NCBI RefSeq assembly: GCF_004010195.1 | Contig: NC_057718.1 | Location: 45,558,322 to 45,622,321, forward strand | DNA length: 64,000 bases | Direction of reading: 5' to 3' | DNA from: Chiloscyllium plagiosum | Taxonomy: Eukaryota | Part shown: piece after piece, positions 3,375-64,000 of the stretch | Layout: each line of letters opens with the position of its first letter | Position numbering within the stretch: the stretch's first letter is position 1 | The notes under the pieces: generated by a model | Database searches by the model: none | What the model was told of the DNA's origin: nothing | What the model saw: only the letters and a program-made list of their open reading frames with translations | Made by a program: the position numbers and the translations under genes

Positions 3375-3475
3375 CTGATGATGAAGGGCTTTTGCCCGAA
3401 GCGTCGATTGTTCCTGCTCCTCAGATGCTGCCTGCCCTGCTGTGTTTTTCCAGTACCACACTCTCAACTCTGACT
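3375..3475 (+). mobile_element. Penelope-derived terminal repeat, family A (single arm), with degenerate hammerhead core
   Basis: ctgatgatgaagggcttttgcccgaagcgtcg...gatgctgcctgccctgctgtg, homologous to the copies at 20.3, 24.4, 39.1, 49.9 and 63.2 kb. Confidence 0.75.
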
Positions 3476-7455: not shown

Positions 7456-8899
7456 GACATCATCTGGCCTGCCTAAATCCCCAACCTCAGCCAATGTGTC
7501 TCTCCTATTTGAGCCGAAAACATATTGCTCAAGGAAGTTTTACTGAATACATTTTATAATTCTTTCTACTCCCTGTCTTCCATTTACTTGAACTATTTAA
7601 ATATCAATTGGAATAATTAAAAGTCCCCTAGTACTACTACTTGCACATCTGATTTCCCTTTCAATATTTTCAGATTTAATCGAACATCCCCAGTCATCCT
7701 CAAATTTAAATCAAAATAATTCAATTTTTCACTCCTCAAAAAGGATACCCTTATTTCCAACACTACTTTTTGCCACCCCACCTTCCTCCCTATTATCCTT
7801 CACTACCTTTTCCAAGCTAATACATCCCTGAATATTATTCATTCGCTCCAAAATCAGATTCCATTAAAATGTCTTTGAAAGCATATCCCAAAATCATTAT
7901 AAGTAGAAGTCTTTTCTAACAATGACCAAAGAAATAGAATTAAGAAGAAAAAAGAAAAAACTTAAAATCTCTCCACATCTATGACTGAAATTCTTCTACT
8001 GTCAAAAGGTCCATCAGGACCAGGGCACTCCTCAACCTGCAGCTTCAACACTTGTAAAATCAAATTCTGCATCAATGCTACAATTCTTCTGTTCTACTCA
8101 AGCGCACAATTTTAATAAGAGTCCTCTCAATAGTCAATCATAGCAACCTCAACAAGATTTAAAAAGTGCAAACAGTAACCATCCTAAATTTATCTTTCAG
8201 CATTAAATCAGGATGGGCATGGATGAGGCTGCTCGTCGGATGCTGCCTGAATTGCTGTGCTCTTCCAGCACCACTGATCCAGAAGATGGATGGGGAGACA
8301 GACAAGGTTTTTTCCCTGGGGTGTGAACATCCAAGGATAGAGGGGATAGATTTTAAAAAAGGGACCTAAGGTGGGGATCTTTTCCACACAGACTGGTGAG
8401 TGTATGTAATAAGCTGCCAGAAGAAGTGGAGGAGGCTGGGACACTTACAGCATCTGGATGAACATATGAATATGAAGAGTCAAATGGGACTGGATTTAAT
8501 TAGGATATCTGGTCAGCATGTTGGACTGAAGGGCCGGTTTCTGTGCTGCATACCTCTATGACTCTGCAAGTTCCTTTTGAGCAATACGTGAGAAAGAAAA
8601 TAGAATGAAGGCTGATATAAGTCTGACAAAAAATTGCAGATTGATACAAGCCTACGAAAATTTTTATTTTGGAAACATTTCCAGAGAATGAACAGATATA
8701 CATTTGCTAACCAACCTTTAACCCCAAATTTCGATGCTCACTAAATTTCTGCTGTAGCAGAAATTCTCTGGCTTTTAAAGAAAATGCACTTTCCTGGTCA
8801 AGATGGTGGCACTTCTTATGATCAAATCTGAAAGTAAAATTTACAGAGAAGACAGGAAAAGAAGTGACTTAGAAAAAACAAACATGTCTATTTGCTCTA

Positions 8900-11300: not shown

Positions 11301-12379
11301 GAACCAGTACTCCTGCAGGGTTGCTTATTTTCAGGTACTGATTCAACATCAACTGTACTTAGGCAAAAAAAGTCAAGCTTTAATACAACTACAACCTGCA
11401 CTTACAATATGGCTGCATCGATATGGGATTAGGCCCTGCCACCAGAGGGCAATAAATAAAGTGTCCATCTAACATCAAAAGTAGAAAATTCATAGAATCA
11501 GATAATTCAGCCCATCATGCTTGCAACGTGCCAGATCTTACAAACAGTTCCACTCCCTGCTCTTTTCTCATGGCCCTGCTAATTCTTTGCACTTCAGATA
11601 TCTACCTAACTCTCTTGAAAATTACTATTCAAACTAACTCCCATCACTAGTGCATTCAAGATCATAACATCTCTAAAATTCTCATCTCTGATCTGCTTAC
11701 TTTAAACATATAGCTACTGGCTACCACCTGCCACTACAAACATTTTGATTGTCTGAAATCATGAAGGATTTTAATAATATAAGTGTCTTATAAATTTATC
11801 TGAATTCTCCTCATCCCAGAATCATTTTCACACGAATTCCTCATTTCTCACATTATTAAGAATTGCAACAGCAGTTACCCTTCAGAGCAAGCATTTAATT
11901 TGCTGCAAAACAGTTTTCAAAAAACCTTTATCATATGAATCGTCTTTTCACATTCAGAACCTCTCCAAGTCTTCAACTTAAATGAACCCTCAGATTCCAT
12001 ACCAGTTGCAATTTGAGTGAAACCCACTTCAGTTCTAGTTACGAACACACAATACAAATAAAAAAACTCCAAGCAATATAAGGAGCAAGGATCATATTTA
12101 GAAGAGTCAGTGCTCATATAGAGTTAAAACATCCCATTATGATACTACAGTAACAATTAGACCTGCAAGTACTTATTCTCTGACAATACTTGATAAATTC
12201 CACTAAAATGCTTCTTTTTTTTGCAGCACTGGCAACCTTTGTGAACTTAGTGTGGTTACTCCACGTAGTAGGAACCAGAGTGAAAGCGTTGCAGTTATAT
12301 TATGGGATCCCACTGACTATTGAGAAAACATTGTTCACAGTCCCAGCAGCTGCAACGCCAGAGGTTCCAATACAACCCA

Positions 12380-12825
12380 CATACCGAGCGAAGCAGAGTT
12401 CGCAGTGATTTCCCCGTTCGTTGACAGTCAGGACATGGGTATAGGCTGGGCACGTGAAGACCAGCTCTCCGATCGCGAACTCTTTGCGAGCCTGCAGCCC
12501 CCGTCCTTTCCCCTCGCTCAGGAACCTCTCCATGGGCCCGGCTGCTGCTACCGCCACGGGCTCCTTCTGCAGCAGCTAGCGCAGGCCTTCTCTCAGCCCA
12601 ACCCTGCTTCAGTCTGTTCCGCAGAGAGCACACTCCATAGCTGCCGGCCTTACTCACACACTCAGCGGCGACCAGCAGCAGCTACTTAAATGGAATCGGC
12701 TGAGCGCTCCCTGCTGATTGCTGCAGTGACGGGCTCCTCCCGCTTCCCTGCTCCTCCCCAGGTCCAAGCGCTCGCCTCTATCCAGGATGTTCCTCCTGCG
12801 CTAGGATAACCCCCCGGGGGTATTT
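12380..12825 (-). promoter_or_regulatory. CpG/GC-rich promoter and 5' UTR region of SMYD2
   Basis: The clearest CpG-dense non-repeat stretch in the window, overlapping the first coding exon. It has a TATA-like ATTTAAGT (minus, about 12684-12691) and GC-box-like GGGAAGCGGGAGGAG just upstream. Confidence 0.7.
12385..12533 (-). CDS. SMYD2: SMYD2 (SET and MYND domain lysine methyltransferase) coding exon 1
   Basis: Translates to MERFLSEGKGRGLQARKEFAIGELVFTCPAYTHVLTVNERGNHCELCFAR, which matches the vertebrate SMYD2 N-terminus (S-sequence GKGRGL, then the start of the MYND finger). ATG is at 12533, with an in-frame upstream TAG at 12576-12578. The exon ends in phase 2 at CG|GTATGT (donor 12384-12379). 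Confidence 0.95.
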
Positions 12826-13651: not shown

Positions 13652-14552
13652 GAGAATTTGATAAGGTTCCCCATGGTAGGCTCATTCAGAAGGTCAGGAG
13701 AAATGGAATACAGGGGAACTTAGCTGTCTGGATATAGAATTGGCTGGCCAACAAAAGACAGCGAGTGGTAGTAGAAGGAAAATATTCTGCCTGGAAGTCA
13801 GTGGTGAATGGTGTTCCACAGGGCTCTGTCCTTGGGCCTCTACTGTTTGTAATTTTTATTAATGACTTGGATGAGGGGATTGAAGGATGGGTCAGCAAGT
13901 TTGCAGATGACACAAAGGTTGAAGGTGTTGTTGACAGTATAGAGGGCTGTTGTAGGCTGCAGCGGGACATTGACAGGATGCAGAGATGGGCTGAGAGATG
14001 GCAGATGGAGTTCAACTTGGATAAATGCGAGGTGATGCATTTTGGAAGGTCGAATTTGAAAGCTGAATACNNNNNNNNNNNNNNNNNNNNNNNNNNNNNN
14101 NNNNNNNNNNNNNNNNNNNNNNNNNNNNNNNNNNNNNNNNNNNNNNNNNNNNNNNNNNNNNNNNNNNNNNNNNNNNNNNNNNNNNNNNNNNNNNNNNNNN
14201 NNNNNNNNNNNNNNNNNNNNNNNNNNNNNNNNNNNNNNNNNCATAGATAGAGTCGATAGCCAGAGACTATTTCCCAGGGCAGAAATGGCTAACACGAGGG
14301 GTCATAGTTTTAAGCTGGTTGGAAGAAAGTATAGAGGGGATGTCAGAGGCGGGTTCTTTACACAGAGAGTTGTGAGAGCATGGAATGCGTTGTCAGCAGC
14401 AGTTGTGGAAGCAAGGTCATTGCGGACATTTAAGAGACTGCCGGACATGCATATGGTCACAGAAATTTGAGGGTGCATACATGAGGATCAGTGGTCGGCA
14501 GAACATCGTGGGCTGAAGGGCCTGTTCTGTACTGTACTGTTCTATGTTCTAT
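13652..14552 (+). mobile_element. Relatively young 5'-truncated CR1 LINE (RT C-terminus and 3' tail) spanning an assembly gap
   Basis: Open frame GVPQGSVLGPLLFVIFINDLD...KFADDTK...WQMEFNLDKCEVMHFG, then TRGHSFKL...FFTQRVVRAWN, and a (ttctatg)n tail. Confidence 0.92.
14071..14241. other. Assembly gap (171 N)
   Basis: Run of N in the sequence. Confidence 1.
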
Positions 14553-17099: not shown

Positions 17100-18800
17100 T
17101 CTCATGGATTGTTTACAGTGCAAAAGGAGGCCATTCAGTCCATATTATCGATGCTGGTCAACAAAGGTTGGGTTAAAACAGAAATTGGTGGAGAAATTCA
17201 GCAGGTCTGGCAGCATCTTTGGAGAAAAAGCAGAGTTAACATTTCAGCTGCAGTGACCCTTCTTCAGAAATTTGGCTACACTAATCCCATTTTCCAGATC
17301 TTGGCCTATAGTCCTGCAGGCTATGACAATGCAAGTGAATATCTCAATAGAGATTCAATGCTTTGAGAGTTTCTGACTCAATTAACCTTTCAGACAGTAA
17401 GTTCCAGACATCCACCCAATCTATGGATGAAAAGAAAACTTAGCTTTCTACTTCTTACTTTAAATCAATATCCCCTGGTTATTGACCCTCCAGTAACAGA
17501 AAAAGTGCCCTGCTATCCAACTTGTCTCCATTCCTCATAATCCTATACATATTAGTATCAGGTTTCCTCTGAACCTTTGCAATGATAAGGAAAACAATCC
17601 CAGGCTATCCAATCATTCCTCATATCTCAGACCCTCTAGCCAAGGCAGCATTCTGGTAATTCCTGTATACACCCTCTCTGGTGCAATCATATCCTTCTTA
17701 TGTGGTGTCCAGAAGTGCACACAGTACTCCAACAGAGACTTAATTAGCAGCTTAATCAACAATTCCAACACAGCCTTCTTATACGTGCACTATATGCCTC
17801 AGCTTATATAGGCATTGGTTAATTTTACTTGCCACTGCTCTGCTAAGCTGACCAGGGTATCCTCCTCACTATTTACCACTTTACTAATTTTTGTGTCACA
17901 CATAAACTTCTTGATCATAGTCTCTTCATTTGAGTCCAAATTGTGTACATCACAAATAGCAAGGGGTGCCAGCACTGCAGAACCCCACTGAGAACACACA
18001 GTCGCAGAAATGTTACCCTCTGCTTCCTGCCTCACAGCAAATTTTAGATCCAATATGCCAGTTTGCCTTGGATCCCATGACCTTTACTTTCTGAGACAAT
18101 CTGCAAGATCAAAAATATCTTATCAAAAGCCTTACTGAAGTCCAAGATGATCACATGAAATGCATTACCATAATGCATTGATCTATCATGCCACTTTGCC
18201 TTAGATGCCATGGGCTATTAATTTCTTGAGTAGTCTGCTATGACAAACCATATCAAAAGCCTTGCTAAAGTCCAAGGAAACCATGTCAAATATATTACTC
18301 TTATCAACACTTCTGGTTACCTCCTTCAAACATTTTCTCAATGTGTCAAACACAATCTTCCCTTAACAAATCCTTGCTGACCATCCCTGATTAATCCATG
18401 TTTCTCCATATTCTGTCCCTCAAAATTCTTTCTAATGATTTCCCCACCACTGAAGTTAGACTGACTGGCCTGTAATTTCCTAGTCTATCCCATCCACCCT
18501 TTGGTTTTATTTAATAGGACAAGGTTAGCAGTCCTCCAATCCTTCAGCACCAATCTGTGGCCAGAGAGGATTTGAAAATTACTGCCAGGTCACTGATATC
18601 CTTTCCCTTGTCTCCCTCAACAACCTGGGACACAACTGAACCAGGACTGCGGATTTATCCATTTTAAGATTGCTAAACCCATTAGTACTTCCTCTATGTT
18701 ATTTCAGTCCACTATTTCCCAGCTCTCCATTCTGATATTTATATCTGCATTATCCTTTTCTACTATGAAAACTGACACAAAGTAATCGTTGAGGTCCTCA
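17100..18800 (-). mobile_element. Decayed CR1 ORF2 with a nested family C Penelope repeat (17175-17270) and an internal ~133-bp tandem duplication (18055-18300)
   Basis: Reverse complements of YRPVSLTSVVGK (ccccaccactgaagttagactgactggcctgtaatt) and DFSKAFD (tcaaaagccttactgaagtcc, present twice). Confidence 0.75.
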
Positions 18801-20264: not shown

Positions 20265-20477
20265 TAGGAGAAAGTGAGGACTGCAGATGCTGGAGACCAG
20301 AGTTGAAAAATGTGATGCTGAAAAAACACAGCAGGCCAGGCAGCATCCGAGGAGCAGGAGAATCAACGTTTCGGGCATAAGAAGGCATAAGAAGGGCTTA
20401 TGCCCGAAACGTCGATTCTCCTGCTCCTCGGATGCTGCCTGGCCTGCTTTGTTTTTCCAGCATCACATTTTTCAACC
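20265..20477. mobile_element. Penelope-derived palindromic mini-element, family A, with imperfect 14-bp TSD
   Basis: Near-perfect inverted arms around 20380-20392. Flanks are gaggtccagtcagt (20251-20264) and gaggtatagtcagt (20478-20491). Confidence 0.85.
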
Positions 20478-23666: not shown

Positions 23667-24334
23667 AAAATTGTTAGTGTGAGGGGGTTTTGGCTAGGAG
23701 AGTGCCAGTGAGGGAAAATTCTGCATGAAATAGTGAGAGTGGTAGAGTATGAACTTCGGTAGGAGGTCAGTCCAGTAGCAGAGATTGAGTGAGTTTGAGG
23801 TAGCAGTGAGAAGATAGTGGCATTCCTGATGGAGTGAAGAGGATCATCACCTTGGTGCAGCATTGCTGGGTATTCCTGGGTATTCCTCCCAATGTCTACT
23901 ACTGCACTGATCCAGCTGACAGCCTCAGACCCCGATTGGGGCCATCTCCGACAATCCTGGAGTGACGAGGACAACCCTCCCCTTCACCACCCCATCCACT
24001 AGCACCTCACGGTCTCTATCCGCAAAGCATGGCACCCATTTCCAGTTGTCTGCCGTGTACCAGGGGAAGAATGTCTCAAACCATGCAGGACAGCTCTGAA
24101 CTGCCAGTTATTGAGTACGTGATGGCCTTTTAAAATATGGTGCCAGTGCCAGGTACCCCAGGATCGCCAAAGCATTGGTGAGTATTCCCACCTACAGTGA
24201 GTAGGAGCATTAGGCTAACCTTGGATGAGCAGGGCACCATAGGGGCATGGCATCTAGTTAACAAGATGAATTTGGGATGATAATATGAGTAAATACGTGA
24301 GAGAAACTCCCTATGAAATACAATGAATAAGACA

Positions 24335-24507
24335 GCATCCAGGGAACAGGAGAATCGACGTTTCGGGCATAAGCCCTTCTTCCTGAAGAAGGGCTTATGC
24401 CCGAAACGTCGATTCTCCTGTTCCCTGGATGCTGCCTGACCTGCTGCGCTTTTCCAGCAACATATTTCCAGCTCTGATGTCCAGCATCTGCAGACCTCAC
24501 TTTCTCC
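24335..24507. mobile_element. Penelope-derived palindromic mini-element, family A, with intact hammerhead core and perfect 15-bp TSD
   Basis: Perfect inverted arms centred at about 24382. CTGAAGA-A-GGGC-TTAT-GCCC-GAAACGTC at 24383-24410. acaatgaataagaca at 24320-24334 and 24508-24522. Confidence 0.9.
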
Positions 24508-39094: not shown

Positions 39095-39221
39095 AGAGAA
39101 AGTGAGGACTGCAGATGCTGGAGATCAGAGTCGAGAGTGTGGTGCTGGAACAGCACAGCAGGTCAGGCAACATCCGAGGAGCAGGAGAATCGACGTTTCA
39201 GGCATAAGCCCTTCATTCCTG
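39095..39221 (-). mobile_element. Penelope-derived repeat, family A (single arm), with probable degenerate TSD
   Basis: gagaaagtgaggactgcagatgctggagatcag...gacgtttcaggcataagcccttcattcct. Flanks are catataatatgaca and catattgaatgaca. Confidence 0.8.
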
Positions 39222-49265: not shown

Positions 49266-49935
49266 ATATGATTCCATGCTTCATTAGCAATATTGCTTCC
49301 ATTAAAAGAGATATCAGAGGCATTCTTGGGGAGGGGGATTAGTGATTCCATCCAAATGGACTTTCAGAGAACTTATCTATGTCAATACATACCATGTTAA
49401 TTTTAAGGTTCTACAGGAATGTGTGTCATTCTGCTGTATGATCAGATACCGTAGCTGAAGAAACAGAAAAAACAGTTGACAAACATGGAGCTATGTGGGC
49501 CAGATGGAACAATTACTAAAATTAAAGATATGGTCCAAGTAACATTGCAACACAAACAGTGCACAAGAGTTAGAAATATTCATGTGGTTCACAATCAATA
49601 TTCCTCACTTTTGAGTGCATGCATACATTGGCCTGAACATCCTTACAGAAGTAGCAGTTCGTTGAGTTCCTCAAAAACATTTAGTTCTGAAACAAATCAC
49701 TGTCAAACAGCCAGTCAAGGAATAGCTGGTAGAAAATTTCATTAGGCTTCCTAGATTCATGGCGGAACCCAAAAAAAGGAAAGAATCTATTGAGAGTACC
49801 TACCTTGGCTTAGGAGAATTGTTTCATACTATCAACGGGAAAGAAGTCATAGGATGTACAGGACTAGTGGAGTTTTATTCCATTCTTTTCATCATCCAGG
49901 GGCATTTCAATTCTTTGTTTCTCAAAGCAAAATTT

Positions 49936-50062
49936 CCAGATGAAGGGCTTTTGCCCGAAACATCAATTTTCCTGCTCCTCAGATGCTGCCTGACCTGCTG
50001 TGCTTTTCCAGCACTACACTCGCGACTGTAATCTCCAGCATCTGCAGTATTCACATTCGCCC
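49936..50062 (+). mobile_element. Penelope-derived repeat, family A (single arm, mutated core)
   Basis: ccagatgaagggcttttgcccgaaacatc...gatgctgcctgacctgctgtgcttttccagc. Confidence 0.8.
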
Positions 50063-61844: not shown

Positions 61845-62055
61845 AAGGCAAAATACTGTGAATGCTAGAAATCTGAAACAAATAGTAAAATTACCGGGGA
61901 AACTCAGCAAATTTGGTAGCATCTGTGTAGAGAGAACACCATTCCAATTTTGAAGAAGAGTCAGAACAGATTTGAAATGTTAGCGCTGTTTCTCTCTCCA
62001 CAGATATTGTCAAAGCTGCTGAGTTACTCCAGTATTCCCTGTGCTTGCTATTGCG
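61845..62055. mobile_element. Penelope-derived palindromic element, family C, degenerate
   Basis: Inverted arms ggaaactcagca...catctgtgtagagagaac / gtttctctctccacagat...tgctgagttactcc, with degenerate core ttgaagaagagtc...gaaatgtt. Confidence 0.65.
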
Positions 62056-63198
62056 TAATTTACTTCCCTTCTTCGAAGAGGTAGCAGGATGAAATATAGC
62101 ACGCTTCTATCGCAACATTTCTTCAGTCTTTTCTGTTTCTCAGGTCTGGTTTGAGTAAGAGCCTTCCTAGGCCATCTCTGTCTTTCTTCTTCCAATCTAG
62201 ATATTGAGGTTGGGAGCAGGTGATGACTTAAGCATCCCTGCTGGGGCTCAGGTAAGTGTTCATGTTTCTCCATTCATTAATTAAAGTTGCAAGAAGATAT
62301 CAATCTGGCCTGTTCAGACCTCGATCCTCTTTCCCGCTCTTCCTGTTACCTAATGATAATGTCAATGTGGCTTCCTGCTCTGACCAGTCATCAGAACTCA
62401 AAAGTGCAATTGTAAGGAATTAACTATCAGCTTCAGTTGAGTATTTTAGAAATGGGAACTGTCAGATTCCAACAGCTGAGAGTAAATGCTCAGACAATTT
62501 GAACTGACCATTCATTCTTCTGGCAGCTGGGTGAGGGTTAAAATTGCTCCCAAAGTTTCAGTAAAATTTCAACACTCGAAGTCTAGTTGCAATGTTCAAG
62601 TGCTGTCTTTATTAAGCATGCAGGGAGCCATCACTGGACATTCCAGGTGCTTCTCCACTGAGGTTCAAATGAGCATAGTTTATGTATGTTTTCATTATCA
62701 ACTACAAGTTAACGTATTAAGTAGATGAAGGCCACAACACAAATGGCTCTGGTGGGAAATAATTATGTTCCTGTGTAGTCAATTGCATTGCAGGGTTTTG
62801 GTGTTGTTCTTTTTGGAGACAGTAAAGAATATGTGTATATCCTGCATAAAAGCTTCACAGGGTAAACCACTGACAATGGCCTTCCCCATTTCTTAATTAG
62901 GTTATCTTGTGCATTGTTTTTGTGTCTTCCATTTCCTAATGGAGTCACCCTGCACCGTTGTCTGTTTGTGTATGCTCTGGCACCTTAGCTGCTGGTCCTG
63001 GCTGGCTCTCCAAATCCACATTTTGTCCTTTCAATGTTTCTTTCAAAGATGATAGTTTATAAAAGGTACTTTGGTTTGAAGGGAAGAATGTCTTGACATT
63101 ATAGATATGCTCAAAGGGTTTACACTATATAAATTAGTCCATAGATAGCACCCACTATACAAGCTTAGCTCCATTAGAGCTGCCTCCTTTCTGCAAAC

Positions 63199-63397
63199 TG
63201 TGTTGCTGGAAAAACGCAGCAGGTCAGGCAGCATCCAAGGAGCAGGAGAATCGACGTTTCGGGCATAGGCCCTTCTTCAGGATTCCTGCCTGAAACGTCG
63301 ATTCTCCTGCTCCTTGGATGCTGCCTGACCTGCTGCGCTTTTCCAGCAACACAGTTTTCAACTCTGATCTCCAGCATCTGCAGTCCTCACTTTCTCC
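63199..63397. mobile_element. Penelope-derived palindromic mini-element, family A, with TSD
   Basis: Inverted arms. (ctcc)tttctgcaaac at 63184-63198 and 63394-63408. Confidence 0.9.
63242..63289 (-). ncRNA. Minimal type I hammerhead ribozyme motif (Penelope type)
   Basis: The minus-strand RNA reads GCAG-GAAUC-CUGAAGA-A-GGGC-CUAU-GCCC-GAAACGUC^GAUUC-UC-CUGC. This gives stem I GAAUC/GAUUC, stem II GGGC/GCCC, a complete catalytic core, a GUC cleavage triplet, and palindromic ACGU in place of stem III. Confidence 0.75.
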
Positions 63398-64000
63398 TTT
63401 CTGCAAACACCTCAAACAGCAGATAGACCAAATGTTTACATTTTATCTATTCTCACCATTTTTAATGATTGGTACACCTGATTTCTGCTACTGTTTTTAA
63501 CCTCTGCGACAATCATATAATAGTGGAGACTTTGTGGAGACTTTGTTGCATCATTTTGATTATTTTTAATAGCTCACGTTATTTTCTTGCATTTGAATCC
63601 TGTTTGTAGTTTTGGCATACAAATAAAATTAAGAAATTGAGATCTGTCATATTGAACCATCCCTATATGAAACCACAGGTTCCAACATGCCAATTGAGGA
63701 CAGCAGCTTGAGAGCAGGAGGAGAAATTGTTTGTCAAGAGCAAAGTGCCACCAACAGCTTCGCGACTCTTGGACACCAATAGCATATGTTTAACACCAAT
63801 TGTGCTGACACACTGGCTGAAAAGTCTGCAGTGCACCCCCAACACCTTTAGGAGTAGCCTTGATATATATGTGGTACTGTGAAGGAAGGAGTAATTTGAC
63901 AGTTAAGCAATATTGCCAGGTAAAAAGAATAGGCTGCTGACCACAACAAGGCTATGTGTACATAAGTAAAGGCTGCTGATGCCATGCTGACAGCTGGGAC

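Follow-up and report, generated by a model that had tools for sequence, protein, structure and literature searches.

A minimal hammerhead motif in a short head-to-head Penelope-like insertion of the shark Chiloscyllium plagiosum, likely inactive in this copy

The window, a stretch of 64,000 nucleotides of Chiloscyllium plagiosum DNA, carries exon 1 of SMYD2 and an insertion of a Penelope-like element (PLE) that bears a hammerhead ribozyme motif on the same strand (Table 1). The motif sits in a head-to-head PLE stub of about 200 bp with a 15-bp target-site duplication. As originally described, the stub is a palindromic repeat, with inverted arms of 74 nt that are 96% complementary, and it lies upstream of SMYD2, the distance from the start codon at 12533 to the cut site being 50.7 kb (about 50 kb had been claimed). 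Two further head-to-head stubs of the same family, each with its own duplication, are present at 20266-20476 and 24330-24507, and the core of the latter, on the plus strand at 24383, is intact. Older single-arm PLE ends lie at 3379-3473, 8229-8274, 17185-17267, 39096-39214 and 49935-50061, several of them ending a few bases from the core start, while an inverted repeat at 61892-62034 (45-nt arms, 78% complementary) resembles an older PLE end. A reverse transcriptase (RT) fragment on the plus strand at 13738-14470 is presumably that of a CR1/L2-type LINE.

Table 1. Features of the insertion, the ribozyme motif and SMYD2 in the window. In parent coordinates, position 0 is C3 of the hammerhead core.
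Feature	Position	Strand	Remark
SMYD2 exon 1	12372-12533	-	
Target-site duplication, left copy, 15 bp; inner bases overlap arm end	63184-63198	.	100% identical to 63394-63408
Target-site duplication, right copy; first 5 bases common with tail end	63394-63408	.	direct repeat
Untailed arm, PLE sense, parent -2 to +88; bears the hammerhead	63191-63282	-	94.6% to natural long copy L101
Tailed arm, PLE sense, parent about +12 to +125; hammerhead 3' half only, without core	63284-63398	+	95.7% identity
36-nt tail, between the common 3' end points +84 to +95 and +124/125	63363-63398	+	
Inversion junction: other arm's tip (parent 0 to -4, antisense) joined to hammerhead arm; supplies most of stem I 5' strand	63281-63289	-	
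Minimal type I hammerhead (stem I, core, extra A, stem II, palindromic stem III)	63248-63285	-	motif letters; predicted fold
Stem I, 5' strand	63285-63281	-	
Core CUGAAGA	63280-63274	-	
Extra A after core	63273	-	
Stem II strands	63272-63269 with 63264-63261	-	4 bp
Stem II loop	63268-63265	-	
Core GAAA	63260-63257	-	
C-G-U	63256-63254	-	
C17, predicted cut on 3' side	63253	-	hammerhead numbering, PMC4209133
Stem I, 3' strand	63252-63248	-	

The minus-strand letters hold the hammerhead exactly as the original prediction wrote it, and the assignment to the minimal type I hammerheads of Penelope-like terminal repeats, with a zero-loop palindromic stem III, is upheld. The core boxes CUGANGA, GAAA and UH are present, as are an extra base between A9 and 10.1 and the G10.1-C11.1 pair, and stem III is the palindrome ACGU with no loop. 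An extra base after A9 together with a palindromic stem III is the published mark of PLE ends with minimal hammerheads (Cervera and De la Pena 2014, PMC4209133). The hammerhead numbering of that report places C17 at 63253, in agreement with the cleavage position claimed earlier. In nearest-neighbour folding, the isolated 48-mer is predicted to form stems I and II around an open core, at -16.2 kcal/mol.

The motif is not a chance occurrence. A strict hammerhead descriptor, which demanded three stem II pairs, gave 84 matches in 952,044 bases, mostly chosen for containing the element, against 1, 0, 0, 0 and 0 in five shuffles. A loose core pattern matched 13 times in the window against 8.4 expected, which is not above chance and is uninformative by itself. 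Finally, an Rfam scan returned no hammerhead family at E<=1, giving only sub-threshold matches to microRNA hairpins.

No core was found on the plus strand of the tailed arm. Stem I of the untailed arm is perfect because the tip of the inverted arm joins the core directly; in long copies of the family it reads C-G, U-A, U.U, A-U, C.C, and five Watson-Crick pairs occur in only 5 of 191 family copies. The 5-bp stem I and its GCAG extension had been described as belonging to the fold: the letters are indeed as written, but pairs 3 and 5 and the GCAG derive from the inverted-arm tip and are not a family trait. The sequence at the inversion junction suggests a 14-nt deletion between two CA dinucleotides, and two other loci (L011 and L022) carry the undeleted form of the same junction. 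In one subfamily (L045 at about 520-735; L173, L195, L318 and L344), a single change produces four Watson-Crick pairs in stem I, and this subfamily is the best natural candidate for a cleavage assay.

Elsewhere, the same PLE end is joined to coding sequence for an RT, recognised by its YIDD motif as a pattern, and for a GIY-YIG endonuclease (PF01541, E 1.5e-5), with a cysteine-rich linker (C-x4-C-x2-C) between them; a Pfam search of the coding fragment tested returned no RT family. The position of this end behind the RT and GIY-YIG sequences identifies the repeat as the pLTR end of a PLE with an endonuclease (EN+), and in source copies the hammerhead is placed in that pLTR. Judged by the linker only, a trait common to Neptune and Nematis (PMC8557442), the source element would be of Neptune/Nematis type. 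The inverted 5'-truncated copy, the one-sided tail and the target duplication of EN+ PLE insertions are all present in the stub. In 13 of 20 long copies (L276-L303), the AUG of loop II opens a frame of 26 codons from parent +14 onward; the long ORF lies in a different frame and seems to begin after the tail. A pyrimidine run followed by AG, resembling a splice acceptor, is found at the +90 end point.

The family is very large. The exact 36-nt tail has 27,752 occurrences in the genome against none for its reversed control, a 211-base query returned 3,352 genome candidates, 40 of which were scored, and 21 such insertions were counted in 264 kb of unselected sequence. The copy number is thus at least 27,752, and perhaps a few hundred thousand. 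Short stubs are also seen inserted within longer copies of the same element (L243, L269 and L271).

End points were collected from 110 sequences, namely the window, 20 unselected stretches of 10 kb and 89 loci chosen for their exact tail within the first 9 Mb of contig C1; one locus (L155) was removed as an overlap, and arms below 85% identity were left out of the end counts. Among 97 head-to-head pairs, 86 have one tail, seven have none and four have two, and the outer ends peak at +84 to +95 and at +124/125. The inner ends of 152 paired arms fall at -10 to -1 in 60 cases, at -11 to -60 in none and further out in three, the corresponding values for 97 lone arms being 41, 6 and 11. Read depth, which is not a measure of copy number, drops at the same inner end point in the DNA contig and in RNA reads. 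In 56 of 68 pairs the flanks carry target duplications of 11-20 bp, compared with 0 of 68 mismatched-flank controls. An intron was considered as the cause of the wall of inner ends and rejected, since the nearest AG lies about 25 nt upstream of it and the copies show no upstream exon in common.

Of the copies that extend into the ORF, 28 have a readable end: 11 of these begin between -4 and +1, seven lie further upstream, ten begin further into the element, and none is at +28. A small excess of ends at +28 to +31 (13 in 4 nt, against 15 in 10 nt from +15 to +24) could represent some cut templates; this peak at the cut site is weak, may be due to microhomology and is absent in long copies. Either arm of a pair can extend further in than its partner (L133, L147 and L160, versus L137), so that simple copying of one arm from the other does not account for them. 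Agreement between the arms at subfamily sites is far above that of shuffled pairs (47 of 51 at +38 and 29 of 31 at +13), and therefore a shared origin from one RNA or one source is likely. Small overlaps are found at many inversion junctions, and the junctions vary from copy to copy. At five loci (L307, L322, L347, L349 and L208), short repeats of the element's first bases lie between the target duplication and the 5' end, as if copying had restarted.

Four families can be distinguished among the loci when those picked on their 5' letters are left out. Across them the core is constant, while concerted changes affect the pairs of stem I, stem II and the palindrome of stem III. Pairs 1-2 of stem I read C-G/U-A, C-G/A-U, U-A/U-A and A-U/C-G, and stem III is AGCU in 15 of 17 copies of another family, as against ACGU in the window copy. 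Stem II covaries too, its pairing being built into the descriptor, such that the independent covariation is that of stems I and III only. The extra A is present in 191 of 191 family copies. Within the family of the window copy, non-CpG mismatches affect 40 of 1,540 core positions (2.6%) and 225 of 9,040 flank positions (2.5%), core CpG sites show 14% loss, and the motif is intact in 60 of the 117 arms that span it. The original prediction had staked the ribozyme on preferential conservation and covariation of core and stems across genomic copies: at the level of copies it falls by its own condition, for they show no preferential core conservation, whereas between families the core is kept and the stems covary. 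Selection acted on the source elements; the stubs are not under selection. Three further PLE families have minimal hammerheads of their own, among them families B (L191, L194, L239 and others) and D (L068, L089 and L200), and in these two a TATA-like box lies 40-48 nt before the core.

Our main reading, to which we give a probability of roughly 0.85, is that the window holds a short head-to-head insertion of a PLE end with the family's known minimal hammerhead, predicted to be buried and likely inactive in this copy. For its making we propose a two-cDNA mechanism. In this proposal, the element's protein would make a staggered cut about 15 bp wide, and each nicked strand would prime reverse transcription at one of two internal RNA sites, at about +90 and +125. 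Both cDNAs would run about 100-130 nt to the 5' end of the RNA, a point likely 4 nt (range 1-10) ahead of the ribozyme core, and their ends would then be linked in head-to-head orientation, leaving small overlaps, deletions or fillers. As the copies extend across the cut site, their template RNA would not have been cleaved by the ribozyme. With an anole PLE in vitro, both target strands are cut and extended, and reverse transcription of uncut RNA begins at two internal sites whose spacing equals one tail (PMC11167929); the single tail per pair and the outer-end peaks observed here match these two start sites. Two cDNAs, one per nick, running off the RNA 5' end before being joined would be the simplest reading of the ends.

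A more tentative extension, whose chances we put somewhat below even, takes the stubs as a fossil map of RNA 5' ends. The RNA would start at the A four bases before the core, the hammerhead would sit at the capped 5' end, and only uncut RNA would be integrated from both strands; cutting would remove the cap and the first 32 bases, and the hammerhead would be an off-switch rather than a tool for releasing template. The base at -4 is the A of a pyrimidine-flanked motif, which we take to resemble an initiator. Of 60 starts at -4, 34 belong to lone copies, compared with 4 of 20 at -3. In the listed copies, with letters counted by hand, a G precedes the start in 57 of 100 cases at -4 against 17 of 100 at -3 and a background of 24%; 12 of 36 such Gs are explained by the inverted arm and 6 by the target duplication. 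A single clean extra G was found in two lone copies by script and in four by eye, versus one extra A; a first pass for such a G gave 4 of 11, which is not convincing, and the control set held only 4 lone copies among 20. As a sign of a copied cap, the G enrichment would be suggestive only, being confounded by the arm and the duplication. The seven of 28 long copies that extend further upstream than -4 stand against the start-site mechanism. From the sharp end points it can be predicted that the RNA begins between -4 and -10 and its reverse transcription near +90 and +125, that the cut is staggered by about 15 bp and that the template is uncut.

The making of the stub can also be explained in two other ways. 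The second arm of the same element could have arisen by cDNA fold-back or by self-priming on antisense RNA, the wall at -1 to -10 then being a stall of the RT and not the RNA start. The agreement of the arms at subfamily sites fits such copying, as it does later conversion; the small overlaps at many junctions are likewise in its favour, and self-priming has been proposed for head-to-head PLE palindromes (PMC3846280). We consider this unlikely, however, in view of arms that each can hold sequence absent from the other, of lone copies that end at either 3' site and favour -4, and of a second family in which a TATA-like box lies at about -40 and short copies begin near -10 (few copies, judged by eye). 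The palindromic stub might also be taken for a non-autonomous element that copies itself, similar to a MITE or a retrozyme, given its very high copy number, its regular size and the derivation of retrozymes from PLE ends (bioRxiv 2026.07.22.740005). This is improbable and already largely refuted: the junctions differ between copies, long arms with coding sequence show this layout too (L056), and the stubs are not tandem, are without the terminal repeat pair of a DNA transposon and have duplications of variable length.

In the stub that two cDNAs would have produced, the inverted arm base-pairs along the entire 3' half of the ribozyme, a feature lying outside the 48-nt frame of the original prediction. 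According to nearest-neighbour folding without tertiary or dimer terms, the hammerhead-ready state is 27.8 kcal/mol above the hairpin when both arms are transcribed; the hammerhead-ready share is predicted at about 2e-20 for the whole insertion and at 9e-6 with just 11 more upstream bases, while for a transcript that begins with the hammerhead arm the hammerhead-ready state would predominate (P about 0.69). When the window and the next 100 kb (164 kb in all) were searched with a regex covering two of the families, no same-strand partner motif was found. The stub is without the upstream pLTR, the promoter region upstream of -4 being absent. Since the both-arm hairpin is favoured, a same-strand partner is missing from that interval and the upstream pLTR is lacking, the window copy is likely inactive, probably buried in a 74-bp hairpin.

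RNA data were consulted as a weak test, about 2% of a poly(A) single-cell run (X6) being read: 501 reads aligned, 500 of them only partly, with none on the unique flanks of the window copy. RNA ends at the cut site had been put forward as a sign of cleavage; the RNA reads show no pile-up there or at -4, in libraries not designed to show such ends. PLE hammerheads cleave poorly even in favourable constructs or need protein, their cleavage as dimers or with protein being low (PMC11167929, PMC4209133), and dimer cleavage was addressed by Lunse et al., as cited in PMC6765202. The ribozyme likely worked in the source elements, either as a dimer or aided by protein, and not in the window stub.

The original prediction nevertheless held that this copy could still self-cleave after 63253 by pairing with a second motif. 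Every core base is intact, the 48-mer alone folds as a hammerhead, the junction happens to yield a perfect 5-bp stem I, and the low cleavage reported for PLE hammerheads as dimers or with protein lends the idea some footing. We find it unsupported, and cleavage of this copy in vivo very improbable: the inverted arm is transcribed first and buries the motif, stem I is partly junction-made, the core decays like its flanks among the family's copies, the 164 kb hold no partner on the same strand, the promoter region is gone from the stub, and the X6 reads argue the same way within the limits of that sample. That the copy has been kept as a regulator of SMYD2 is exceedingly improbable. It does lie on the same strand upstream of the gene, but with 21 such insertions in 264 kb of unpicked sequence one is expected near any gene, no flank transcription was seen in the 2% of X6, and the divergence of the copy is ordinary. 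We found no functional link between the window copy and SMYD2, and the proximity, while true, is incidental.

The motif, the element class and the layout are all already known, and the window copy is real, ordinary and likely inactive. As one of at least 27,752 copies with a published motif, in a context that speaks against activity, it matters little singly; the family matters slightly more, as it bears on the role of PLE hammerheads and on the making of inverted PLE insertions (PMC11167929, PMC8557442). With subscription journals and Repbase/Dfam entries outside the scope of the literature search, no report was found on shark or palindromic PLE stubs or on a hammerhead start site. The passages of PMC5753468 consulted contain nothing on palindromes that would link the stubs to the human palindromic UCON/Eulor repeats, and two searched supplement files of PMC4209133 contain no shark term; supplement file 1, outside that search, may list shark motifs.

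The stub resembles the minimal hammerheads of metazoan PLEs (PMC4209133) in the core boxes, the extra base between A9 and G10.1, the G10.1-C11.1 pair, the palindromic 15.2-16.2 without loop III and the short stem I, and also in the pLTR placement, the many lone copies from truncated elements and the opposite-strand pairs. It differs in that stem II has 4 bp and that the family's own stem I contains a U.U mismatch, the perfect one being junction-made. Non-LTR retrozymes (PMC7229834, bioRxiv 2026.07.22.740005) share the type I hammerhead, the PLE origin and the non-coding nature, and tandem ones have been described in one cartilaginous fish (bioRxiv 2026.07.22.740005). Theirs, however, are direct tandem units, each with a hammerhead and permitting dimer cleavage, whereas the insertion here is a single inverted pair with one core.

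The anole Poseidon PLE PAc (Frangieh et al. 2024, PMC11167929) likewise carries its hammerhead close to the junction of pLTR and ORF, shows two 3' end points separated by one tail length, is copied from RNA that was not cut, and has shown no RNA ends at the cut site. In contrast to PAc, the shark element has the cysteine-rich RT-endonuclease linker of Neptune/Nematis (PMC8557442), and while the PAc ORF starts at stem II (PMC11167929), the loop II AUG here opens only 26 codons in those 13 of 20 long copies. Finally, the head-to-head inverted 5'-truncated pLTR copy, the one-sided tail (optional and 30-40 bp there) and the target duplication are shared with EN+ PLE insertions (PMC3846280, PMC8557442, PMC2377424), from which the shark stubs differ in being about 200 bp long and very abundant, in having duplications of 11-20 bp as opposed to 8-10 bp, and in inner ends that pile up just before the ribozyme.
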